Origin: Selenomonas sp.
Lineage (GTDB): Bacteria > Bacillota > Negativicutes > Selenomonadales > Selenomonadaceae
DNA length: 34,452 bases
Assembly: GCA_003518745.1 (NCBI GenBank)
Contig: DOYB01000177.1
Location: 1 to 34,452 of the forward strand
Reading direction: 5' to 3'
This document shows positions 1 through 22,481 of this stretch, one piece after another. The number at the start of each line of letters is the position of its first letter. Within the stretch, counting starts at the first letter, position 1. The translations under genes and the position numbers were made by a program. The notes under the pieces are model-generated. The model searched no databases and was not told where the DNA came from. It saw only the letters and a list, made by a program, of their open reading frames with translations.

Positions 1-813
1 GTACCGAATGATACGCATCTCAATCATGGAGATTGCGAGGCCATGCTTATTACAGGCCCCAATATGGCGGGTAAATCCACCTATATGCGTCAGGTTGCCC
101 TATTGACCCTGATGGCTCAGGTTGGGAGCTTTATCCCTGCAAGGGAGGCTGTTATTTCGCCGGTTGACCGTATTTTCACCCGTATCGGGGCAAGTGATGA
201 CTTGGTGAGCGGACAAAGCACTTTTATGGTGGAAATGAATGAGGTGGCTCAAATACTGAAATATGCTACCAAGAAGAGTCTTGTGATACTGGATGAAATC
301 GGACGGGGCACAAGTACCTTTGACGGCATGAGTATCGCTAGGGCTGTCATGGAGCATATTGAAAAGAAGATACATGCCAAGACCCTTTTCGCCACCCATT
401 ATCATGAGTTGACGGATTTGGAAGATGATAAGATAAAGAACTTCTGTATTGCCGTCAAGGAAAGGGGAACTCAGGTTGCTTTTCTGAGGCGTATCGTTTC
501 AGGTAGTGCTGATAAGTCGTACGGAATTCATGTTGCTAGGCTGGCCGGATTGCCAAAGGCTGTTACCGATAGGGCTGAGGTCATATTGGAGGGTTTGGAG
601 TCCGGTGAAGCACATATGGAAAAGCCTGTATCAGAAAAAAAGGTTGAAAAGGAACAGTCCTCGAAGCCTGCCGCCAACATGGACTCCCTTTTTTCGTCCG
701 GCTTGCAGAGCGCGCTTTTAGGGCTTGATGTCATGTCCATGACTCCGTTAGAGGCGATGAATGAGCTCTACCGCCTGCAGGAACAGGCAAAGAGGGAGGC
801 AGGAATTTCATGA
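1..813 (+). CDS. mutS: DNA mismatch repair protein MutS, C-terminal part (5' end lies outside the window)
   Basis: Frame 1 is open from nt 1 ([14 protein letters not shown] then [17 protein letters not shown]). It shows Walker A GPNMAGKS, Walker [17 protein letters not shown], and THYHEL. The TGA stop at 811-813 overlaps the mutL ATG (ATGA). Confidence 0.95.
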
Positions 814-2684
814 GCATAGTGCATCTCTTGGATGACAATACCATCAACAAAATAGCCGCGGGAGAAGTAGTTGAACGTCCTGCCTCAGTAGTCAAGGAGC
901 TGGTGGAAAACGCCATAGACGCGGGGGCTTCACGCATTGAGGTGGAAATCCAGTCAGGCGGCACCAGCCTTATTCGAGTTACAGACAATGGCAAGGGCAT
1001 GAGCATGGAGGATGCGAAGCTTGCCATGGAGCGTCATGCCACCAGCAAGATAAACGCGGTGGATGACCTGCTTTCCATTGGTACACTGGGATTTCGCGGT
1101 GAGGCGCTGCCTACTATCGCGTCTGTATCACGCTTTACCATGCGTACCCGGCAGGAGGGCAGTGAACTGGGAACACTTGTGACCTGTTCCGGCGGGAAAC
1201 AGCAGGATGTAAGGGAAACGGGATGCAGCCTAGGTACGACTATTCAGGTTGAGGATCTGTTTTTCAATACTCCTGCCCGTAAGAAGTTCCTTAAGACAAA
1301 TCAGACGGAAGCCTCCAAGATAAATGATTATATTATCAAACTGGCTCTTTCCCATCCAGAAATCATGTTTCGATTCATAAATGGCAGCAAGGCGGCTGTT
1401 GTGACGCCGGGAAACGGTATTTTGAAGGATGTCATAGCGAGCCTTTACGGAAAGCAGGCGGCAGCGTCTCTTTTGGAACTGTCTTTCTATGATGGTGAGC
1501 TTCTAATTTCGGGATATATTACAAAGCCCAATATGCTGAAAAGCAGCAGGGCTTGGCAGACTTTTATGGTGAACGGACGCATCATTCAGAATCGGGCAAT
1601 GGCCAAGGCTATAGAAAATGCCTATCGGGCAATGGTGCCGAAAAGCGGCTTTCCAATGGCTGTGCTGTCCCTTGAGGTGCCAAAGAATACGGTGGATGTC
1701 AATGTACATCCGCAGAAGACCGAGCTTAAATTCGAGGATGAGAGTCGGATTTTCAAGGCTGTGTATAAGTCTGTAGTGGATGCCTTGCGTCCATCTGTTC
1801 AGCAGCTCGGACAAATGGCTGCTGTGGTTCCTAATGTGGAGAGGCATTATACCATGGAACCGATGCAGTTCATTCCCGCAAGTGAACCGTCCACGGAAAT
1901 GCCGAAGTCACCGGAGAGAAATGGGCAGCCGTACACGCCAAAGACGATTTATGAGTCAGTGAATCAAAGTAATGGAAGTGCCATGAGTTTTCACGAAGCC
2001 CAGGAAATGCTTCATTCAAAGCCCATAATGCCTGCTGATTCAAGCGAAATAGCAGATGTCGAAAACGTAACAGTTGAAGGGAATAGAGCAGTAGAGGCAT
2101 TGCGGTATGATGGCAGCATAATTCCCATTGGCCAGGTGGATTTATGTTATATAATAGCCCAGGACAAACGGGGGCTGTATATTGTGGATCAGCATGCGGC
2201 ACATGAGCGTATCCTTTTCGACAAATTTTCTTCCATGGCTGACGGTATACCCTCTCAGCAGCTTTTGGTCCACTTGGTGCTGGAATTTGATGCCAGGGAA
2301 GCAGATTTGATTGAGAATAATCGCGAGCTGTTTCACTCCCTTGGATTCACTATGGAACCCAGTGGAGAGAGAGAGTTCAGACTTACTGAAATTCCCTCGG
2401 ACGTACCCATAGGAGAAGCAGAGGATATCATTCGTGAAATCCTGTCAGATATTCAGGAGCAGCATCGGACTACGGCAAAGGATATACGACAGTCGTGTCT
2501 TGCCACAACCGCATGCAGGGCTGCCATAAAGGCAGGCGAGGAGCTCAATATCCGCCAGATGCAGATCATACTGGAGGAATTGGCTCATACGGACTTCCCA
2601 TACACTTGTCCCCACGGGCGTCCTACAGTGCTGAAATTCAGCAGTGACGAGCTAGCAAAAATGTTTAAGAGAACGGGATTTTGA
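810..2684 (+). CDS. mutL: DNA mismatch repair endonuclease MutL
   Basis: GHKL N-terminus ([25 protein letters not shown]). Endonuclease motif [11 protein letters not shown] at nt 2187-2219. C-terminal ACR and CPHGRP motifs. The ATG at 810 overlaps the mutS stop. Confidence 0.95.
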
Positions 2685-2710
2685 TATTCCGGCAGGGAAG
2701 GAGGAGCTGT

Positions 2711-5236
2711 ATGGAGGCTGAGTTTAACGCGTGGTTGGGAAATGCTGAGGATTTCAATCGGTTTGAAACAGTTCAGTACAGCAGGGGCCTATTTCCCATG
2801 AATATGCCCGATGAACTGCTTTATGCCTTCTGTCAATCTCTTCCGGAACGAGTAAAAAAGTGGCAGACTGAGCTTGATGGTGAGAATATCCGTTACTTTC
2901 TAAGTGATTACGGCAATGTCAGGTTTTATTCGGAGGAAATTGTATTAGGTGAAGGCTGGGAACTCTTTGTCATATTTACGGAAGGCAGATTGACACTGTT
3001 GTCCGCTTCCAATGACATTGAGCATCAGGCGCGAATGCGTTCTGTTATGGCAGATAGGGAGTGGGCCTTACGTTATGGGGATGAGGTGACAGGCTTTCGT
3101 CAGAAACCCTTGTTGGAATTCCTGAAGATGCTGCACTTTTATATGCTTCGCCATCAAAGGACCTGCAGCGCCAGGACCTTTCGCAGTATTTTCCAGCACA
3201 ACATGGATTACCTGCCGGATAATGTGCAGTTGGAAGCCGTGGAGTCGTCAGATGATGCGGACGCGGCCAATATATTCCTCTCGGGCTGTGCCGGCTCTGG
3301 TAAATCGGTGACCGGCTTCCGGTGGCTTGCCATGCATCCTGTGAAGGCGGTAAAGAAAATATGCCTGTCCGTTTCAGAGAAACAGCGACATAAGCTGGAG
3401 TATTGGCAGGAATCAGAGAATCGGATTCGAAGGGCAATGAATATTGAAGAAATACCTGCCATCGAATGCAGCATATGGTTCGATTTCCTGTCAGAGCATG
3501 CCCGTCCTTTCATTGAGCGTGGAAGGTATGTCTTGAACACTGAACAGAGCTTTGCTGTCTTTTACGAAATAGCCAGATTTTTGCCTACGGTATATTGGAA
3601 GGATATACCGGGGGAGGCCATCAAGGATAAAATGTTTTTCCTTTGGGGCGAAATCCATGGACTAGTCAAGGGCGCGATGTTTACCCGTAATATTGCTGAA
3701 GGGTCAAGTGAGCCCCTGACCAGGAAGCAGTATGGAGAACTTAGGTCCTTCCACAAGGGAAGCGCGGAAAGCAAACATCTCACCGGGCAGGGAATAGCCA
3801 TGCTGTTCCAGCTGTATGAAAGATATGAAGAATATTTAAAATCCCGTCATTTCATTGATGACAATGACGTTGCGCGTATTGTCATAAACCACATTACGGA
3901 AATAAAGCAGAGCGAGGATTTCGTTAAATACCAGCTGGCATTTTTGGATGATTGTCAGGATTTGACTGAAATACAGATGTATGCCGCGTTTTCGCTGCTT
4001 TCTGACTGCACCCAGAAATTCATGGCCTTTGACCGTTGCCAAATCCTGCAGCCCACCTGGTTCCATCCCGGATTTGTCCAGAAGACGGCTGAGCAGTTGT
4101 TTCCAAAGGGGGATGATGTGTATTCCCTGAGATACCACCTACCCAATCAGTACAGGTCGTTACTGGAGGTAATGAGGTTTCAGGGCAGTATACTGGATGA
4201 GCTTGGAGGACATCGAAATCTAAGTGAATTGGACTTAAGAGCCGCGGGGTTTGCTGAACAGGATTTGAGGGAAGGGCTTCTGCCCATATGGATCGCGGAT
4301 ACGGGTGAAAATAGGGAGCTGCTTAATGGCCTGCTGGAGGAATTTGAAGCAGGTGATATTTTTGTGCTTCACTCGGCCCGGCTTAGCGCGGAGGAACGGG
4401 ACGGAAAGCATCTCAGCCTGTCTGATTGCAAGGGTATAGGAATCGCGTCGGCTGTAATACTTTGGAATTTGTTTTCCGATGCGGAGAGCTATATGAACGA
4501 GGCTCAGGCATGGGAGTATTTCTATATTGGAGCTGCCCGCCCAGAATCCTGTCTGTTTGTGCTGGAAACGGATAAAGGAACAATAGGCGCATTCCTTGAG
4601 CAGCTTACTGCCCGCGGGATAATTGAAAAGTGCGAATCGCTTCATGATACCTACGCTGATGGATATACCTGGGTAGAAGAGCTAAGGAAACGCATAGTCT
4701 GTTCTTCCGAGGAAAGCGAGCTTGAGGAGGCCTACCACCTGTATTTGCATGATGAGTTTCAGGAGGCTCTAGCCATTTATGGCCAGCATCGGGAGAAAAG
4801 GGAAGCAGTGTTAAACAGCATGGTTTGTGAAGGAAAACTGGCTGAAGCAGAGGGCAGCTTAAGCGCCGCGTTGGAGTGGTATTTCAGATTGGCAGATGAA
4901 TCAGTAACAGGCATGTACTGTATCCGTGAGTTTTTGGACAATGCCAATATAACACCGGAGCTGCGCTTCGCGGCAAATATGTATCTATTGAATGACTTGA
5001 AATATACGGAGTTTAATGGCCCCTCCGGATTGAAGACCTTATATGAGGATTATCATGACCACAGTGGACATTTCAAACTTGGGGTGCTGATAGACAAGGT
5101 CGTTTCCATATATCCGGTACTTGAACAGAAGCTGGGGGGATGGACGAAGGCCGTATTGAAGGAAATGGATACCTGCGTGCTTGCCATCAATGATATAATT
5201 GACAGGGAGGCTGATTGGAGGGTACACGATGAGTGA
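2711..5236 (+). CDS. Divergent UvrD/PcrA-like superfamily-1 P-loop ATPase (helicase-like) with unassigned N- and C-terminal domains
   Basis: ATG 2711 is preceded by RBS GGAAGGAGGAG (2696-2706); the ORF track starts earlier at TTG 2681. Walker A GCAGSGKS (3284-3307), motif II-like LDDCQDL (DDCQD 3947-3961), motif IV-like LPNQYRS (4145-4159), motif V-like CKGIGIASAVIL, motif VI-like FYIGAARP. The order and spacing match SF1 helicases, but several catalytic residues are substituted. Confidence 0.7.
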   Translation: MEAEFNAWLGNAEDFNRFETVQYSRGLFPMNMPDELLYAFCQSLPERVKKWQTELDGENIRYFLSDYGNVRFYSEEIVLGEGWELFVIFTEGRLTLLSASNDIEHQARMRSVMADREWALRYGDEVTGFRQKPLLEFLKMLHFYMLRHQRTCSARTFRSIFQHNMDYLPDNVQLEAVESSDDADAANIFLSGCAGSGKSVTGFRWLAMHPVKAVKKICLSVSEKQRHKLEYWQESENRIRRAMNIEEIPAIECSIWFDFLSEHARPFIERGRYVLNTEQSFAVFYEIARFLPTVYWKDIPGEAIKDKMFFLWGEIHGLVKGAMFTRNIAEGSSEPLTRKQYGELRSFHKGSAESKHLTGQGIAMLFQLYERYEEYLKSRHFIDDNDVARIVINHITEIKQSEDFVKYQLAFLDDCQDLTEIQMYAAFSLLSDCTQKFMAFDRCQILQPTWFHPGFVQKTAEQLFPKGDDVYSLRYHLPNQYRSLLEVMRFQGSILDELGGHRNLSELDLRAAGFAEQDLREGLLPIWIADTGENRELLNGLLEEFEAGDIFVLHSARLSAEERDGKHLSLSDCKGIGIASAVILWNLFSDAESYMNEAQAWEYFYIGAARPESCLFVLETDKGTIGAFLEQLTARGIIEKCESLHDTYADGYTWVEELRKRIVCSSEESELEEAYHLYLHDEFQEALAIYGQHREKREAVLNSMVCEGKLAEAEGSLSAALEWYFRLADESVTGMYCIREFLDNANITPELRFAANMYLLNDLKYTEFNGPSGLKTLYEDYHDHSGHFKLGVLIDKVVSIYPVLEQKLGGWTKAVLKEMDTCVLAINDIIDREADWRVHDE

Positions 5237-5960
5237 TGTTTTTGATATAGAGAAATTCAGTGAAAATGCTGAACGGCTTACTAAGACTCTTGAAAAGTCA
5301 AGTACATACATCAATGATGTTGATCAGGCCATGACAAGGCTGAGTGAAGCTGTCAATGATGCCGAAATAAACGCGAAGCTGGACAGCTACGGACAGAGGC
5401 TGCAGGAGCTGCAACAGGGCAGTCGGCAGATATTGGATAATTTATCCGGACAGCCTGAGGAGCTAAAGGAGGCCGCGAGAAGACTTCTTGAAACCACCGA
5501 GCAATTCGGGAATTCTTATCAGTATCTGGAGCGCTATAAGGAGAGGGCTGAGAGGCTGACGGAGCTTTTGGAAAGCCTTGGAACCCTTTCGGACTTTGAG
5601 GAACGCCTGAAGAAGTATGAGGCTGAGCTTGAAACAGTATCCGGTACATTGGACAAGATAAAGAAACAGGAATTGGAAATCCGCAACATTCCAAATGTCT
5701 TAAAGGCCATGAAGGAATCCGTAACGGATCTCCAGAAGCAGTATATAGAGGCCGCGGCAGATTTGAGGGACCAGGGCAATGAAGCACTCACTGGTGTTCG
5801 AGGGGTCAAGGATTCTGTGAATAAGGCAGAGGAACTACAAAGGACACTGTCGGATCAGGTGGGATTTTTCAAGATTGGAATATATGCTCTTATCGTCATG
5901 AATACCTTGATGACTGTATTTATGATTATCTTCCTGATGAAGGAGTTTTTCTTTTCATGA
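5229..5960 (+). CDS. Tail-anchored coiled-coil protein (long heptad-rich helical region plus one C-terminal TM helix)
   Basis: ATG 5229 (MSDVFDIEKF) lies 7 nt after GGAGGG and overlaps the upstream stop by 8 nt (ATGAGTGA). About 215 aa are E/K/L/Q-rich helical sequence. The C-terminal segment FFKIGIYALIVMNTLMTVFMIIFLM is hydrophobic. The stop overlaps the next ATG (ATGA at 5957-5960). Confidence 0.75.
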   Translation: MSDVFDIEKFSENAERLTKTLEKSSTYINDVDQAMTRLSEAVNDAEINAKLDSYGQRLQELQQGSRQILDNLSGQPEELKEAARRLLETTEQFGNSYQYLERYKERAERLTELLESLGTLSDFEERLKKYEAELETVSGTLDKIKKQELEIRNIPNVLKAMKESVTDLQKQYIEAAADLRDQGNEALTGVRGVKDSVNKAEELQRTLSDQVGFFKIGIYALIVMNTLMTVFMIIFLMKEFFFS

Positions 5961-6757
5961 GGCTATATGACAATTTGAGTACCATCGTCACCACGGGCCG
6001 CAAGGTTAAGGACAGCAGTATCGCGTTGGCAAAGGAAACAGCCCGTCGGCTGAATATTCCCTTTGTGCAGAGGCATACCGAATCCATAGCAGAGCTTCGG
6101 GAAAAGCATGGGGTGGATTTCGTGCTTGTCGCGAAAAAAGGACTGCTGGTGCTGGATACAAGAGATGGTGAGTTTTTCTTTCATCCCAATATGGCGCATC
6201 TTCGGCTGAAAAATCTGAGATTCGGTGATGGCAGGGACAACATGGTAGAGGCTATGAATCTGAAAGCCGGCATGTCAGTATTGGACTGCACTTTAGGTTT
6301 TGGTACTGATGCTATAGTGGCCAGCTTCGCGGTGGGTGAGAGTGGAAGTGTTACAGGTTTGGAGTCCAGTCCATTAATCGCGGAGGTTACGGGCTATGGC
6401 CTGGCCAATTACCATGCGGAAAACTATCCCATACAGGAGGCCATGAGAAGAATATGTACTATTCCATCGGACTATCTTGATTATCTCCGGCAGGCGGAGG
6501 ATAATTCGTATGATGTGGTATATTTTGACCCCATGTTCCGCTATCCTCTGATGGAAAGCAGGAATCTGAATCCCTTGAGGCTGGCCGCGAATCACGATCC
6601 CGTTTCAAGGGAGGCTGTGAATGAGGCAATACGCGTGGCAAGGCACAGGGTGGTGCTGAAGGAAAACGCAAGGAGTGAGGAGTTCGAAAGACTTGGTTTT
6701 CCCATGATAGCCGGAGGGAAATACAGTAAGGTGCATTACGGTGTCATTGAGATTTAG
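5957..6757 (+). CDS. Class I SAM-dependent methyltransferase, RsmJ (16S rRNA m2G)-like family
   Basis: VLDCTLGFGTDAIVAS (SAM motif I), YDVVYFDPMF (motif IV-like, matching RsmJ DVVYLDPMF), and RVVLKENARS resemble RsmJ/YhiQ-type proteins. The start is translationally coupled to the upstream gene. Confidence 0.75.
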   Translation: MRLYDNLSTIVTTGRKVKDSSIALAKETARRLNIPFVQRHTESIAELREKHGVDFVLVAKKGLLVLDTRDGEFFFHPNMAHLRLKNLRFGDGRDNMVEAMNLKAGMSVLDCTLGFGTDAIVASFAVGESGSVTGLESSPLIAEVTGYGLANYHAENYPIQEAMRRICTIPSDYLDYLRQAEDNSYDVVYFDPMFRYPLMESRNLNPLRLAANHDPVSREAVNEAIRVARHRVVLKENARSEEFERLGFPMIAGGKYSKVHYGVIEI

Positions 6758-6780
6758 ATTTAGATTAGAGGTGCTGGCTG

Positions 6781-8013
6781 ATGCGGTTTTATTTGAATGA
6801 TATGCTCTATGCTATTTCCTACGCTCTGGACAATGTGGAGAGAGAATACAGGGGGATAAGTCTGCACCACGCTGAACGTGTCGCGTACATGTCAGTACAG
6901 ATGGGGCGGGCTTATGGTTTGGATACTACGGCCCTGATGAATCTTGCGGTTGTGGGGGTTCTTCACGATAATGCCTTTACTGAGTATTATAAAATGCTGG
7001 ATAAGATTCCAACTTTGATGGATGGCCGGCCGGGAATGAGTCCCGATGAGATGGCCGCGGCGATACGTCCCCATTGTGAGATGGGGGAGAGGAACGTGAA
7101 GGTACTGCCCTTTTATTCAGATATAAAGAACGCTGTGCTGTTCCATCATGAGAATGCTGATGGCAGCGGAGCCTTTGGGATTTCAGCTGATGAAACGCCC
7201 CTTTATGCCAGGCTTCTGCAGCTGAGTGACCAGTTGGACAATCAATTCATATTGGAATATGTGGATGAACACACCTATAAGAAAATCATAGATTATCTTG
7301 AGGAAAATGTAGACCACCTTTTCACAAGGGAAATGGTTGATTTATTCAGGTCAGCCTTTCCCGAACCCATGAAGGGAACATTGAGTTATGCCATGATTCG
7401 ACAGATGCTGCAGGGGGATCTGCCACATGTGCTGGAGGAATACAACGCGGCTGACGTTCGGGGATTGGCTACGGTAATCGCCCGAATCATCGACTATAAG
7501 TCCAAATTCACCTGCACGCATTCCCTTGGCATTGCCCGTAAATCCAGCGAAATGGGGCATTATCTTGGCTATGACGAAGAACTTTGCACAAAACTATACC
7601 TGGCAGGTGCCCTGCACGATGTGGGCAAGCTGACGATTCCCTCAGATATTCTGGAGAAGCCGGATCGTCTTACCGAGCGTGAGTTTTCCGTTATGAAGAC
7701 CCATGCCATCGCGTCCTGGAATATTCTCAGGACTATTGACGGCCTGGATGATGTGGTGGACTGGGCGTGTATGCACCACGAGAAGCTGAATGGCAGCGGC
7801 TATCCCTTCGGGCGTACGGCAGACCAGCTTTGCCGTAATGCGCGCCTGCTTTGCTGTACGGATATATATCAGGCACTTAGGGAGGAACGGCCATACAAAG
7901 AGGCCATCTCTCATGATCAGGCCATATCGGTTATGCGGGAAATGGTTGCTAATGGTCTCATAGACGCAGAGCTTACAGAGGCTATGGATAAATGCTTCTC
8001 GGGGAGGAATTGA
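6781..8013 (+). CDS. Tandem HD-GYP-type phosphohydrolase: degenerate N-terminal module plus canonical C-terminal HD-GYP
   Basis: The C-terminal module has H..LHDVGK and HHEKLNGSGYPFG (7774-7812). The N-terminal module has HHAERV...LHDNAF and HHENADGSGAFG (7144-7179), so it lacks both the GYP signature and the HDxGK lysine. Confidence 0.85.
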   Translation: MRFYLNDMLYAISYALDNVEREYRGISLHHAERVAYMSVQMGRAYGLDTTALMNLAVVGVLHDNAFTEYYKMLDKIPTLMDGRPGMSPDEMAAAIRPHCEMGERNVKVLPFYSDIKNAVLFHHENADGSGAFGISADETPLYARLLQLSDQLDNQFILEYVDEHTYKKIIDYLEENVDHLFTREMVDLFRSAFPEPMKGTLSYAMIRQMLQGDLPHVLEEYNAADVRGLATVIARIIDYKSKFTCTHSLGIARKSSEMGHYLGYDEELCTKLYLAGALHDVGKLTIPSDILEKPDRLTEREFSVMKTHAIASWNILRTIDGLDDVVDWACMHHEKLNGSGYPFGRTADQLCRNARLLCCTDIYQALREERPYKEAISHDQAISVMREMVANGLIDAELTEAMDKCFSGRN

Positions 8014-8016
8014 GGT

Positions 8017-8691
8017 ATGGCAATAGATTTACCGGCATCCTTTGAGGTGATAGCGAATATAGACTGGGACATGGTGAAAAACAAGGTTCAAGACTATGCT
8101 CCGGTGATTGAAGTTATAAAGAGTACATGGAGCCATGAAACTTTGCGTGAAATCGCGGAGGGAAAGGTTTTCGTTCCGGATGAAACCCTGAATGATATGT
8201 TAAAGAAGAATATTTCAGAGAAAAGTCCTATAACGATGCTGAAGGTTACCTCCAGAGATACAGGACGTCTTGAGATTTATGGGGAGACCAAGAATTTAGG
8301 CAGGGTTGAGCTTTCCGGCACCATTGAGGAATGTGTGCACAGGGGCGATAGTACCTATGTGAGCTACCGTGTCCGGGAAAGGGAGCTTTTGGATCACGGC
8401 CTTGGTTCATGGATTTTTTCGAGAATATCCATGTCCATGACTCAGAAAATAATGGGTGGATTGAAATTCTCGGACGATGTTCCCACCAAGATTCACGGCA
8501 ATACGATTACGGTGGATCTATCCAAGATAGTGGGGGAGTCCGAGCTTTCAAAGACCGAGTTCCACGGCTACAGACTGGTGGATGTGGTTGGGATTGAGGG
8601 AGCGAAGCCCAAGGAGGGCGGAATCGAGATAGATACCAAGCTGAATGTTCCGGATAATATTAAGGAGCTCATCCTGGGAATACTGAAATAG
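8017..8691 (+). CDS. Hypothetical cytoplasmic protein (no motif recognised)
   Basis: The 224-aa ORF starts 3 nt after the HD-GYP stop, with an RBS-like GAGG upstream. Its codon style matches the neighbours. It is followed directly by the terminator at 8694-8725. Confidence 0.6.
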   Translation: MAIDLPASFEVIANIDWDMVKNKVQDYAPVIEVIKSTWSHETLREIAEGKVFVPDETLNDMLKKNISEKSPITMLKVTSRDTGRLEIYGETKNLGRVELSGTIEECVHRGDSTYVSYRVRERELLDHGLGSWIFSRISMSMTQKIMGGLKFSDDVPTKIHGNTITVDLSKIVGESELSKTEFHGYRLVDVVGIEGAKPKEGGIEIDTKLNVPDNIKELILGILK

Positions 8692-8693
8692 AA

Positions 8694-8725
8694 AAACTCC
8701 GCTGTTCATTTTGACAGCGGAGTTT
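8694..8725. terminator. Bidirectional intrinsic terminator between the mutSL-linked operon and tsf
   Basis: A 12-bp perfect stem, AAACTCCGCTGT (8694-8705) with ACAGCGGAGTTT (8714-8725). It has an A-run on the 5' side and a T-run on the 3' side, so it can terminate convergent transcripts. Confidence 0.8.
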
Positions 8726-8749
8726 CTGCGATATCGGAATATCCGAATC

Positions 8750-9616
8750 TTATTTCATCTGTGCGGCAACTTCGGCAGCAAAATCTTCCTGCTTCTTCTC
8801 GATGCCTTCACCAAGCTGATAACGGGTGAACTGGAGTACCTTCACGTCTCCAAGCACATCCTTCACAGTCTTTTCGGTATCCTTTACGAAAATCTGCTCG
8901 TTGAGGCAGACTTCCTTGTAGTACTTGTTGATACGGCCTTCAACCATCTTATCGACGATTTTCTCAGGCTTGCCTTCTTCCAGAGCCTGCTTGCGGAGGA
9001 CTTCCTTTTCATGTTCAAGATCCTCTGCCGCGACGCCACTGCGATCGACTGCTGTAGGATTAGCCGCCGCAATCTGCATGGCCACATCCTTGCCCAGCTC
9101 CTCAGAACCGCCGGTGAGCTCAACCAGAACGCCAATCTTTCCGCCCATGTGAATGTAGCTTGCGAGACGTCCCTCGGTCTGGTAACGCACGAAACGGCGA
9201 AGGGAAATCTTCTCTCCGATTGTGGCGGTAGCTTCGGTAATCAGCTCGGAAACCTTCTTGCCGTCAAGAACACTATCGTTGAGGGCATCAAGGTCAGCAG
9301 GCGCGGAAACGGCAATGTGCTCGGCAATCTTGCTCTCGAGGCTGCGGAACTGCTCATTGCCGGCAGCAAAGTCGGTTTCGCAGTTGATTTCTACCAAAAC
9401 ACCAGTCTTGGAATCTCCTGTCACATAAGCAGCAACAGCGCCCTCTGCGGCAATACGGCCGGCCTTCTTCTCAGCCTTTGCGATTCCCTTTTCACGAAGA
9501 TAATCTATAGCCTTCTGCATATCACCATCAGTTTCGGTGAGAGCCTTCTTGCAGTCCATCATGCCTGCGCCTGTTTTCTCGCGCAGGTCCTTTACCATTG
9601 CAGCTGAAATAGCCAT
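8750..9616 (-). CDS. tsf: Translation elongation factor Ts
   Basis: [29 protein letters not shown]-like N-terminus; typical length of 288 aa; immediately downstream of rpsB. Confidence 0.97.
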
Positions 9617-9646
9617 ATTTTATTTCCTCCCCAAATTCAACCGTAA

Positions 9647-10372
9647 TTAAGCTTCTTCTGTGTCCTCAGCAGACTCGTCCTCAACGTCCTGTCCCTGACG
9701 GCCTTCCAGAACAGCATCGGCCATACGCCCGGTGAGAAGCTTGACGGCGCGGATGGCGTCATCATTTCCGGGGATTACATAGTCAATCTCGTCGGGATCG
9801 CAGTTTGTATCCACGATTGCCACAATGGGAATATTCATCTTGCGAGCCTCTGCCACGGCAATACGCTCCTTGCGGGGATCAACCACGAAGAGAGCTCCGG
9901 GCAGACGGTTCATTTCCTTGATACCGCCAAGGTATTTCTTCAAACGGTCCATCTCATGACGAAGCTGCATGACTTCCTTCTTGGTCAGCACATCGAAGGT
10001 TCCATCCTCTTCCATGGTCTCAAGTTCCTTAAGACGCACTATACGCTTCTGGATGGTCTGGAAATTGGTCATCATGCCGCCCAGCCAACGCTCGTTGACA
10101 TAGAACATGTTGGCGCGAAGGGCCTCTTCCTTGACGGCTTCCTGAGCCTGCTTCTTTGTACCCACGAAGAGTACGGACTTGCCTTCCTCAGCTACACTGC
10201 GAAGGAAGTTGTAGGCCTCGTCCACCTTACGCACGGTCTTCTGGAGATCGATGATGTAGATACCATTGCGCTCAGTGAAGATGTACTTAGCCATCTTAGG
10301 ATTCCAGCGCCTTGTCTGATGTCCGAAATGGACACCTGCCTCTAAAAGTTGTTTCATGGAAATCACTGCCAT
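9647..10372 (-). CDS. rpsB: 30S ribosomal protein S2
   Basis: [27 protein letters not shown]... is a canonical S2 N-terminus. It has an acidic C-terminal tail. Confidence 0.97.
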
Positions 10373-20697: not shown

Positions 20698-21366
20698 ATG
20701 GTGGGAATTACAGAGCTTGTGCACCATATCTTTATAAAGGATGGTGCTTGGCTGACCATTCTTAAAGGCCTGGCGACTACGGTGGAGATTTCCCTGCTGG
20801 CCTTATTGTTTGGAACTTTGTTTGGGGCGGTTTTGTGCTGCCTGAGATTGGGGCGGTACAAGCTATTACGGATAGCCGCCATGACGTACATATCCGTCGT
20901 GCGCGGCTGCCCGGTGCTCATGCTCTTGATGCTTTTGTTCTATGGAGTGCTTGCTCAGAGCAGCCTCTCGTCCATTACCGTGGCTGTTTTGGCATTTAGC
21001 CTGCATACGGCAGCCCATGTAGCGGAGCTCCTGCGTTCCGCTATGATGGCGACCGACAAAGGACAAATCGAGGCTGCGAGAACCTTGGGGTTTTCCGCGC
21101 TGCAGGCCTTTTATCTGGTTACCCTGCCACAGTTGACTCGTATTGCCCGTCCAGTATACCAATCCACTGTAGTGAATCTTATACAGTGGACCAGTGTAGT
21201 TGGATATATCACTATTACGGATTTGACCCGCGTAATCTATAATGTCGCTTCCCGCACTATGCAGCCTATGATTACCATATGTGGGGGAATGGTGCTGTAC
21301 CTTTCTCTGTCATACCTGGTGTATGGAATCTTTTACTTGACAGACAAAAAGGGAGGCGAGGCCTGA
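20698..21366 (+). CDS. Amino acid ABC transporter permease (HisM/GlnP family)
   Basis: About five hydrophobic segments. EAA-loop motif IEAARTLGFSALQAFYLVTLPQ. Confidence 0.9.
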   Translation: MVGITELVHHIFIKDGAWLTILKGLATTVEISLLALLFGTLFGAVLCCLRLGRYKLLRIAAMTYISVVRGCPVLMLLMLLFYGVLAQSSLSSITVAVLAFSLHTAAHVAELLRSAMMATDKGQIEAARTLGFSALQAFYLVTLPQLTRIARPVYQSTVVNLIQWTSVVGYITITDLTRVIYNVASRTMQPMITICGGMVLYLSLSYLVYGIFYLTDKKGGEA

Positions 21367-22481
21367 TGGGTATTATAGAGGTGGAGGGGCTTTGCAAATC
21401 CTTTGGAGATTTATCGGTACTTCAGAATGTTAATCTCAGTGTCAATGAGGGGGAGCGTATCTCTATAATCGGTGGGTCAGGCTGCGGGAAAAGTGTTTTC
21501 CTGCGCTGCCTCAACCTTTTAGAGATTCCGGATAAAGGCAGAGTACTGATTGATGGTAAAGAGATAACGGCTCCCGGTGCTGATGTGGATAATATCCGAA
21601 GAAGTATGGGGATGGTCTTTCAGAAGTTTTGCCTTTTTTCCCATATGAACGTCATTGATAACCTCTGTCTTGCCCCCACGAGGCTTCTGGGGATGAGCAG
21701 GGAGGATGCGGAAAATAAAGCCCACGGCCTTCTCAAAGAGGTGGGGCTGGTATCCAAGAGGGAGGCTATGCCCCTTACGCTTTCAGGGGGACAGCAGCAG
21801 CGAATCGCGATTTGCCGTGCTCTGATGATGGAGCCGAGAGTGCTTCTTCTCGATGAGCCAACAAGCGCGCTTGACCCGACGATGGTGGGTGAGGTTCTGG
21901 CGGTTATACGTCTTCTCGCGAAGAAAAATCTCACGTTTCTTATCGTCACTCATGAGATGAGCTTTGCCAGGGAGGTTTCGGACAGGATTCTCTATTTTGC
22001 CGATAGGGGCATATATGAATCAGGAACTCCGGAGGAAGTATTTGACCATCCAAAACGGGAAAAGACAATTGCGTTCATAAATAAATATCGATACTATGGT
22101 TGTGAGATATCAGATAAGAATGAATTCGATCTTATGTCGGTACAAGGTGGTATATGGACCTTCGGGGAACGATATGGCTTGTCTGATAAACGTATTTTGA
22201 ACCTGCAGCTCTGTACGGAGGAATTGATATACGAGTTCATGGATGTGTGCTACCCGGAGCAGAACAAGGTGGATATTAAGCTGGATATCACTTTTGCGGA
22301 GACTACCGGTAAGGTTCATATTGAATTTGTATGCGGCGGGAAGCCTTATAATCCAGTTACCGTCGATAAAGCCGGTGATGATTTTTCCGACTCATTGGGA
22401 GTTATAATAGTGAAAAAAATTTCCAGTGATATTGGATATGAGTACGCGGGGGATAAGAACAGGGTTTGGATTGAGCTGTAG
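21366..22481 (+). CDS. Amino acid ABC transporter ATP-binding protein fused to a C-terminal degenerate GHKL/SpoIIAB-like domain
   Basis: ATG 21366 overlaps the permease stop (TGATG). Walker A GGSGCGKS, signature LSGGQQQR, Walker B LLLDEPTSALD. The last ~130 aa (nt ~22087-22478) follow the pattern of anti-sigma-kinase HATPase domains (LQLCTEELIYEFMD; VHIEFVCGGKPYNP; DSLGVIIVKKISSDIGYEYAGDKNRVWIEL). Confidence 0.8.
   Translation: MGIIEVEGLCKSFGDLSVLQNVNLSVNEGERISIIGGSGCGKSVFLRCLNLLEIPDKGRVLIDGKEITAPGADVDNIRRSMGMVFQKFCLFSHMNVIDNLCLAPTRLLGMSREDAENKAHGLLKEVGLVSKREAMPLTLSGGQQQRIAICRALMMEPRVLLLDEPTSALDPTMVGEVLAVIRLLAKKNLTFLIVTHEMSFAREVSDRILYFADRGIYESGTPEEVFDHPKREKTIAFINKYRYYGCEISDKNEFDLMSVQGGIWTFGERYGLSDKRILNLQLCTEELIYEFMDVCYPEQNKVDIKLDITFAETTGKVHIEFVCGGKPYNPVTVDKAGDDFSDSLGVIIVKKISSDIGYEYAGDKNRVWIEL

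Follow-up and report, generated by a model that had tools for sequence, protein, structure and literature searches.

A divergent UvrD-like NTPase gene and its coiled-coil partner, inserted downstream of mutL in a Selenomonas lineage

Related systems and the gene behind mutL

In Escherichia coli, MutL activates the SF1A helicase UvrD through the 2B domain of the latter. A review of methylation-independent mismatch repair (MMR) enters PcrA (=UvrD) and YrrC as the helicases of Bacillus subtilis and describes little as established outside E. coli (PMC8744996). A UvrD-like domain can also be kept after inactivation, as in AddB, which retains Walker A but carries Gly for the catalytic Glu and Ser for the Arg finger, and in AddB and RecC selection maintains the domain as a non-motor module (PMC3321194). 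GajB, of the Gabija system, is a UvrD-like SF1 NTPase that serves in a two-gene module as a nucleotide-sensing or regulatory subunit and not as a classical helicase. Here, we describe a UvrD-like gene (labeled X, 2711-5236) that lies directly downstream of an endonuclease-type mutL in a 34,452-nucleotide stretch of Selenomonas sp. DNA (assembly GCA_003518745.1, contig DOYB01000177.1), referred to in the following as the window.

X encodes a new UvrD-like SF1A protein that diverges from the known ones, and with a confidence slightly better than even we read it as a switch or scaffold, gated by nucleotide and tethered to the membrane, that arose from an active motor. According to this proposal, X would be the NTPase subunit of a self-contained two-gene module with a translationally coupled coiled-coil partner. 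The pair was inserted into a pre-existing mixed operon, between mutL and a methyltransferase gene (SAM_MT), in the Selenomonas lineage to which the window belongs. Three changes are confined to this lineage: Asp replaced the catalytic Glu, motifs V and VI decayed, and the partner gained a C-terminal membrane anchor. ATP hydrolysis by X would be slow or nil, and X would not be a processive helicase but would be held at the membrane by its partner, with its N-terminal alpha/beta domain and C-terminal TPR-like repeats as candidate interaction surfaces; a role in MMR would not be expected.

The closest structural matches to X are UvrD, PcrA, and Rep, with which it shares the motif order Q, I, Ia, and II to VI, and paralogs of X, in which DExQD, NYRS, KGLE[YF]P, and YVGxTRA are kept, score above the UvrD-helicase and UvrD_C cutoffs of Pfam. 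X itself differs from this group in falling under all Pfam and NCBIfam thresholds, in having Asp for the catalytic Glu and degraded motifs V and VI, in a motif III that reads DRCQ(I/M)xQPT instead of GDxDQSIYxxRGA, and in possessing an N-terminal alpha/beta domain of its own, C-terminal TPR-like repeats, and an obligate downstream coiled-coil partner, with no room for a full 2B domain. The closest documented analogue of its evolutionary course is AddB/RecC, where, as in X, a UvrD-like fold retains Walker A while the catalytic Glu is lost and other motifs are eroded, and AddB chains are among the Foldseek matches of X. However, X has neither a nuclease domain nor an Fe-S cluster, its partner is a small coiled-coil protein and not an AddA-like active motor, and its erosion is far milder than that of AddB (Asp and not Gly, with the Arg kept in most members); the likeness is one of evolutionary trajectory, not of membership. 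GajB shows a weak PADLOC match to X (one model, helicase core, E = 0.009) and GajAB structures are weakly matched in Foldseek, but the partner of X is not an OLD-family nuclease of the GajA type, with no nuclease nearby and no defense-island or mobile context. HelD, the helicase IV-like factor that recycles RNA polymerase in Firmicutes and Actinobacteria, is a UvrD-like NTPase about as long as X, has additional domains at its N-terminus and as insertions, and is likewise not a conventional helicase; it differs from X in keeping canonical ATPase motifs and in having, to our knowledge, no dedicated partner gene, while X has no Gre-like N-terminal coiled coil.

The mutL junction, the partner gene, and the family

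What ties X to MMR is gene order. As traced by tblastn with the window genes, only the window, L001-L003, L020, and L019 show the order mutL-X-partner-SAM_MT-HD-orf224 (L numbers are genome loci, P numbers protein-search representatives), with X being 85%, 58%, and 49% identical to the window copy, respectively. At the other 23 family loci, no mutL was present within the 6-10 kb of flank fetched. The original prediction had taken the linkage to mutSL as a possible sign of an MMR accessory factor; the comparison does not support this, since mutL adjacency belongs to one narrow clade, which is largely the outcome (a sporadic gene, not next to mutL in relatives) that the prediction itself had named as refuting it.

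Looking up the MutL orthologs of other Selenomonadaceae led us to loci without the pair. In L023, whose MutL is a sequence named Mitsuokella jalaludinii by its sources, and in L024, a second lineage, the order is miaB-mutS-mutL-SAM_MT, with nothing between mutL and SAM_MT (gaps of 25 and 2 nt) and a SAM_MT 66-67% identical to that of the window, and in a third Selenomonadaceae lineage an RND efflux operon follows mutL. Because relatives have empty mutL-SAM_MT sites, X and its partner are a two-gene insertion between these genes. The region shows a flat GC content (0.46-0.50), tight gene packing, and no compositional anomaly, with no repeats or mobile genes seen; the insertion is therefore old, and a recent horizontal insertion is ruled out by the same observations. 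X is probably co-transcribed with mutSL, and in the mutL-X interval no terminator-like site was found, with promoter-like and terminator-like counts over positions 1-9700 being at the level of shuffled sequence. Operon membership is nevertheless weak functional evidence, because repair genes, a methyltransferase gene, and an HD-domain gene already stood together in the operon that received the pair, and the comparison of loci suggests that co-transcription reflects the landing site of the cassette and not a repair role.

The constant neighbor of X, absent from the original prediction, is a coiled-coil gene. Every complete family locus has a charged, helix-rich open reading frame (ORF) of 205-350 amino acids (aa) immediately after X, which in L013 starts 20 nt after the X stop, and clustering of all flanking ORFs identified it as the sole gene that recurs across different paralog contexts. 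In the window, the partner gene begins before X ends, with an overlap of 8 nt (ATGAGTGA), and shares 4 nt with the start of the next gene. To judge from this arrangement, X and its partner make up an uncharacterized two-gene module in which the partner is translationally coupled. The N-terminal ~80 residues of the window partner are homologous to the partners of L007 (E = 8e-12) and L005 (E = 4e-8). Between the window type and a second partner subgroup (YQKGLEEI type), profile-profile comparison reached an hhalign probability of only 22%, with the N-terminal 60 columns in register, and we have not retained a single family for all partners. Only in the mutL-linked clade does the partner end in a hydrophobic membrane anchor: Kyte-Doolittle maxima over 19 residues are 2.35-2.61 for these partners and 1.06 or less for all others. 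The window partner, a tail-anchored coiled-coil protein, also matches Pfam V-SNARE_C (28.3 bits, cutoff 27.1), a resemblance that is probably compositional and architectural and not homologous.

With respect to the range of the family, a word-indexed search of 5.8 billion proteins returned 11 X-family clusters, and an exhaustive HMMER search of 1.84 billion representatives returned 30 at E<1e-30, below which there was a tail of generic UvrD-like proteins matching aa ~364-460 only. The family amounts to about 30 clusters at 50% identity, with up to three paralogs per genome. Loci covering most of X come from Anaerovibrio, Mitsuokella, unclassified Selenomonadaceae, and 'Veillonellaceae bacterium SB90', while X's own cluster consists of Selenomonas sp. 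and Selenomonadaceae metagenome-assembled genomes (MAGs); by these assignments, the members identified are all in Selenomonadaceae, and beyond the family a Coriobacteriaceae MAG alone gave a hit, which is weak and partial. Three divergent X-plus-partner cassettes per genome are present on different contigs in Mitsuokella jalaludinii LCP21S3_H7 (L010, L012, and L013) and in SB90 (L014, L016, and L017), in contexts that all differ and of which none is near mutL.

Paralog lengths range from ~830 to ~1950 aa through N-terminal extensions. In the giant paralogs (1770-1950 aa), this extension, which is otherwise unassignable, holds an RNase H1 N-terminal domain (Cauli_VI, hybrid-binding) at full length, scoring 27.5 bits in L017 and 23.5 bits in L010 (cutoff 21) and just below the cutoff in L013 and L016. 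The window X has no such extension. Its presence tentatively points to RNA:DNA hybrids or structured nucleic acid as the substrate of the ancestral family. In the specific case of the 1013-aa paralog type, a ~495-aa Phosphonate-bd (PF12974) protein is encoded 18-30 nt after the partner, on the same strand, at each of the four loci, and may be a third operon member specific to this subgroup. A GmrSD_C/DUF4268 type IV restriction-like gene (L005, 1-2036), ~8 kb upstream of a 1013-aa paralog, is the sole defense-type gene seen near any family member.

Fold, motifs, and selection

In a Foldseek search of the X AlphaFold model against the PDB, PcrA, UvrD, Rep, AdnB, and AddB fill the top ~30, with PcrA 2pjr as the best match (E = 3e-8) and the top matches spanning 340-420 aligned columns; HelD ranks well below PcrA, UvrD, and Rep (E 3e-4 to 5e-3, rmsd ~19 Å). 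The model was built from a shallow alignment of 11 homologs and has a mean pLDDT of 68, being confident for the N-terminal domain, domains 1A/1B, and the C-terminal helices, with a pLDDT of ~30 at aa 478-629. A profile search of the word-indexed database deepened the alignment by one protein only, leaving the full-length model shallow and domain 2A unmodelled. The Foldseek matches confirm an SF1A UvrD-like fold for that half of the core which is modelled with confidence.

Taken alone, X remains below every Pfam gathering cutoff, with UvrD-helicase (PF00580) reaching 13.3 bits versus 23 at aa 364-438 (E = 0.065) and a subthreshold match to SLFN-g3_helicase at Walker A (E = 0.0097). An NCBIfam search with X gave no match and a PDB sequence search nothing useful, and the family profile retrieved weak TPR and PcrA fragments only from PDB sequences. 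Several paralogs do exceed the Pfam cutoffs, with UvrD-helicase scoring 24.4 bits in L009 and 27.7 bits in P0011, and UvrD_C (PF13361) scoring 34.9 bits versus 25.6 in L005. The divergent UvrD-like SF1 protein read by the original prediction is thus borne out by Foldseek and by the paralogs. Translation likewise reproduced the motif strings, their coordinates and canonical order, the substituted catalytic Glu (Asp at that position), and the endonuclease-type motifs of the adjoining mutL. Also upheld are the lack of a terminator and the three-part layout, in which a short core is flanked by an N-terminal region of ~168 aa and by ~190 aa (in the model) of helical C-terminal sequence. With respect to the ORF, the ATG at 2711 and its strong ribosome-binding site (RBS) are kept, while the length of 842 aa and the gap of 27 nt are corrected to 841 aa and 26 nt. 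The maximal ORF is 2681-5236, the mutL stop codon is 2682-2684, and close homologs (839-844 aa) all start at the equivalent Met.

The model of the N-terminal domain combines one long helix and a four-stranded antiparallel sheet with additional helices, and the domain has no Pfam match and no significant PDB match (best E 0.11). Members of the RelE/ParE superfamily (the Cami1 RelE domain, YafQ, ParE2, HigB, and HP0892) are enriched at the top of its insignificant matches, with target-normalised TM-scores of up to 0.47, and a 'GNYRLLW...ILGIVSHD' type pattern in paralogs fits this resemblance, which we treat as a lead only. All motifs (Q, I, Ia, II, III, IV, V, and VI) could be located in X in canonical order and align with the canonical versions of the paralogs. 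Within the clade, the sequence of putative domain 2A is as conserved as that of the other domains, and motifs IV and V are separated by ~90 aa, which is too little for a 2B domain of the size it has in UvrD. The C-terminal repeats are the fastest-evolving part of X; over this region, the family profile weakly matches designed consensus TPR proteins (E = 0.006-0.4), with no Pfam TPR match. In Pfam-type scans of X and its partner, neither a nuclease nor another effector domain was found.

Outside the mutL-linked clade, motif II reads F[ILV]DE[CS]QD in every representative covering it, NYRS and FYVGATR[AGS] are present in nearly all, and KG[LM]EYP forms motif V in aligned members. Ancestral members of the family, with canonical DECQD, NYRS, KGLEYP, and YVGATRA, have the appearance of active motors on nucleic acid. 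In the mutL-linked clade, these motifs read DDCQ[DE] (motif II), KGIGIA (motif V), and GA[ALV]RP (motif VI), and a metagenome scan added no further loci of this DD type. The window X has Asp (D414) where a competent UvrD-type helicase has the catalytic Glu of DExQD, with KGIGIA at motif V and IGAARP at motif VI, where the Arg finger position is retained. Further changes are seen in P0006, which lost the motif VI Arg (GASCP), in P0012 (41% identical), where motifs III and IV read ADPGQ and QCRS, and in P0013 (672 aa), which has DDIQW at motif II and is missing the whole 2A domain (motifs V and VI) but keeps the N-terminal domain, domains 1A/1B, and the C-terminal repeats. P0013 might be a natural 'half-helicase'. 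Three derived traits coincide in the mutL-linked clade, namely, mutL adjacency, eroded ATPase motifs, and a membrane-anchored partner.

Full-length members vary little or not at all at Walker A, the Mg-binding Asp, the motif III Gln, and the motif IV Arg, and the Walker A Gly/Lys, D413, Q416, D441, and Q444 are invariant or nearly so across the family. Because the first four features are retained, X would still bind nucleotide. Furthermore, X is under purifying selection: against the 85% identical relative, dN/dS is 0.12 for X, 0.124 for the C-terminal half of MutL, 0.085 for SAM_MT, 0.071 for the HD gene, and 0.059 for the partner, and X is therefore still a functional gene, although at greater depth its non-synonymous change is about twice that of its neighbors. 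A pseudogene or decaying gene is ruled out by this dN/dS and by a conservation of 2A equal to that of the rest of X. The pattern of erosion fits the second option of the original prediction, an ATP-dependent switch rather than a processive helicase.

Several observations weigh against the switch or scaffold that we favor. Adjacency to mutL is retained down to 49% identity with tight packing, which is compatible with selected co-expression, and the correlation between the DD motif and mutL comes from four independent loci, without the contexts of P0012 and P0013, of which the latter might equally be an assembly artefact or gene fragment. The exchange of Glu for Asp is a conservative one, and the window X has every other residue that contacts the nucleotide; judged by these residues, it could have real ATPase or even translocase activity, and at a pLDDT of ~30 for domain 2A the model does not give the active-site geometry. 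In addition, the homology of the two partner subgroups appears only suggestive, and relatives of X are annotated solely as 'hypothetical protein' or 'ATP-binding domain-containing protein', so that no function can be read from any annotated relative.

Table 1. Features of the window and of paralog loci (positions are those of the window unless a locus is given)
Feature	Position	Strand	Basis or remark
mutS, 3' part (gene runs off window start)	43-813	+	96% identical to C-terminus of 864-aa L001 MutS with MutS_I-V domains
mutL, endonuclease type	810-2684	+	Motifs confirmed; public source name 'DNA mismatch repair endonuclease MutL'; start overlaps mutS stop by 4 nt
MutL endonuclease-type motif	2187-2219	+	Translation; ACR and CPHGRP also present
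mutL-X spacer, 26 nt	2685-2710	+	Read from sequence; RBS GGGAAGGAGGAG at 2695-2706
X, 841-aa divergent UvrD-like SF1A NTPase, eroded motifs	2711-5236	+	Foldseek, family alignment, dN/dS
X N-terminal alpha/beta domain, aa 1-168, family-specific	2711-3214	+	Stand-alone model, pLDDT 84, pTM 0.83
X domains 1A/1B, aa 169-477	3215-4141	+	LDxxQxxAV-type VQLEAV, Walker A, motif II, motif III
X Walker A, GCAGSGKS	3284-3307	+	Translation
X motif II, DDCQD	3947-3961	+	Translation
X motif III, FDRCQIL, aa 440-446	DRCQ at 4031-4042	+	Translation
X putative domain 2A, aa 478-629	4142-4597	+	Motifs IV, V, VI; model poor, pLDDT ~30
X motif IV, NQYRS	4145-4159	+	Translation
X motif V (degraded), CKGIGIASAVIL, aa 573-584	4427-4462	+	Translation
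X motif VI, FYIGAARP, aa 604-611	4520-4543	+	Translation
X C-terminal all-helical TPR-like repeat region, aa 654-841 (~190 aa)	4670-5233	+	Model helices, pLDDT 80-90
Partner gene, 243-aa coiled-coil protein	5229-5960	+	Position kept at family loci; C-terminal membrane anchor about 5865-5948
SAM-dependent methyltransferase (SAM_MT, PF04445)	5957-6757	+	Pfam match; orthologs directly after mutL in L023, L024
HD_5/HD-domain protein (6781-8013) and conserved 224-aa ORF, orf224 (8017-8691)	6781-8691	+	Rest of syntenic block
Giant paralog X ORFs	L010 7235-12643; L017 7190-12505; L013 6878-12496; L016 192-5774		Hybrid-binding domain at aa ~736-777 in L010
Phosphonate-bd genes	L005 13890-15371; L006 10272-11762; L012 13613-15094; L014 13607-15133		

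The HD gene of the mutSL-linked operon encodes a 410-aa, HD-GYP-like protein with two HD_5/HD stretches, and in L001 a FIST-GGDEF protein is encoded upstream of miaB-mutS, placing cyclic-di-GMP-type signaling genes on the flanks of the repair genes in this lineage. The product of orf224 has no Pfam or PADLOC family; its gene follows the HD gene in all four syntenic loci (72-92% identity) and is the last of the same-strand block, after which comes a convergent tsf-rpsB pair. A leucine-rich, low-complexity 298-aa ORF (8711-9607, + strand), antisense to a putative tsf (EF-Ts-like; 8750-9616, - strand), is almost certainly a shadow ORF and not a gene. A 400-aa ORF (21279-22481) joins an ABC_tran ATPase domain to a C-terminal region weakly matching HATPase_c_2 (26.9 bits, cutoff 27.4) and overlaps the preceding permease gene by ~90 nt, being either an unusual fusion or the result of a wrongly extended start. 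The other genes of the window are all housekeeping (tsf-rpsB, hypDE, dprA-topA-trmFO-hslVU, and asd), and a scan of the window found no Rfam families and no tRNA genes.

Alternative explanations and meaning

Among the alternatives, the one that fares best is a transcription- or R-loop-associated factor, by which the family would act on RNA:DNA hybrids or RNA polymerase and the window copy would be a reduced version; we consider it unlikely. The hybrid-binding domain of two giant paralogs (L017 and L010) passes its Pfam cutoff, HelD-RNA polymerase complexes are among the Foldseek matches of X, and PcrA/UvrD is documented as binding RNA polymerase and suppressing R-loops (PMC8318588). However, the window X has neither the hybrid-binding domain nor a HelD-type N-terminal coiled-coil arm, the HelD matches are low in rank and superpose poorly, and a membrane anchor on the partner would be unexpected for a polymerase-bound factor.

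The premise behind the MMR accessory, that no helicase is firmly assigned to this pathway in Firmicutes, is reasonable as an open question, since the helicase of MutL-endonuclease MMR is assigned there only tentatively (PMC8744996). In this lineage, X, with or without its partner, would then be recruited to MutH-independent MMR, where it would join MutL in removing the strand, either by helicase action or as an ATP-dependent switch, and the short, terminator-free junction with mutL, the conservation of this arrangement in four of four independent clade loci, and the purifying selection on X would all fit, with the clade-specific changes possibly marking neofunctionalisation after the insertion. 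Despite this, we regard such a role as very unlikely. The cassette was inserted into an operon with unrelated genes and is absent from the mutL-SAM_MT junction of relatives, and no other family member lies near mutL, mutS, or any recurrent repair gene. The mutL-linked copies carry the worst motor motifs, with one copy being without domain 2A, and the space between motifs IV and V is too short for the 2B domain on which MutL acts in UvrD. A membrane-anchored partner is, moreover, ill-suited to a replisome-coupled excision helicase. A repair helicase is disfavored because the most damaged motor motifs and an anchored partner are the opposite of what a strand-displacing helicase needs, and a gene found next to mutL in a few uncultured Selenomonas-like genomes cannot be a general MMR solution of Firmicutes.

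We judge it equally improbable that the pair is an anti-phage or anti-mobile-element defense module, i.e., a two-gene NTPase system like that of Gabija GajB that landed near mutL by chance. Such a system could be recognized in the compact two-gene cassette, in the multiple divergent paralogs per genome with their variable N-terminal extensions, in the roughly twofold faster evolution of X at depth, in the weak resemblance of the N-terminal domain to RelE/ParE toxins, in the weak, generic PADLOC matches to GajB and a DRT-associated helicase, and in the GmrSD-type gene 8 kb from one paralog. Yet no specific PADLOC family is matched, the PADLOC coiled-coil matches of the partner are compositional, the RelE-like similarity is not significant, and neither protein has a nuclease or effector domain. 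A PHROGs search with X returned a generic DNA helicase only, a scan of 2.9 million viral contigs contained no relatives of X, and around the window copy there are no integrase, transposase, or defense genes, while gene order within a core housekeeping operon stays the same even where identity falls to 49%. Given the generic PADLOC and PHROGs matches and the empty viral scan, defense was rejected as the leading explanation. Least probable of all we hold a co-option of the cassette after its insertion, by which X and its anchored partner would become an ATP-gated accessory coupling MutL-endonuclease MMR to a membrane-proximal site or step, even though this would explain why motif erosion, anchor gain, and mutL linkage arose together and are retained under purifying selection.

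If X is indeed a nucleotide-gated switch or scaffold, this locus would call for caution in reading function from gene order, since a tight mutL junction that resembled a lead on the missing helicase of MutH-independent MMR would be exposed by the empty-site comparison as a lineage-specific insertion. It would also mean that Selenomonadaceae possess an uncharacterized two-gene SF1 module, with paralog expansions and hybrid-binding giants, whose N-terminal region and partner fall under no named domain. Cultured Mitsuokella and Anaerovibrio carry paralogs with canonical motifs, so that the family is open to experiment even though the organism of the window is uncultured. Finally, the one lineage with eroded motifs may be a natural intermediate on the way from a helicase motor to a non-motor scaffold, a route that is documented for AddB and RecC.

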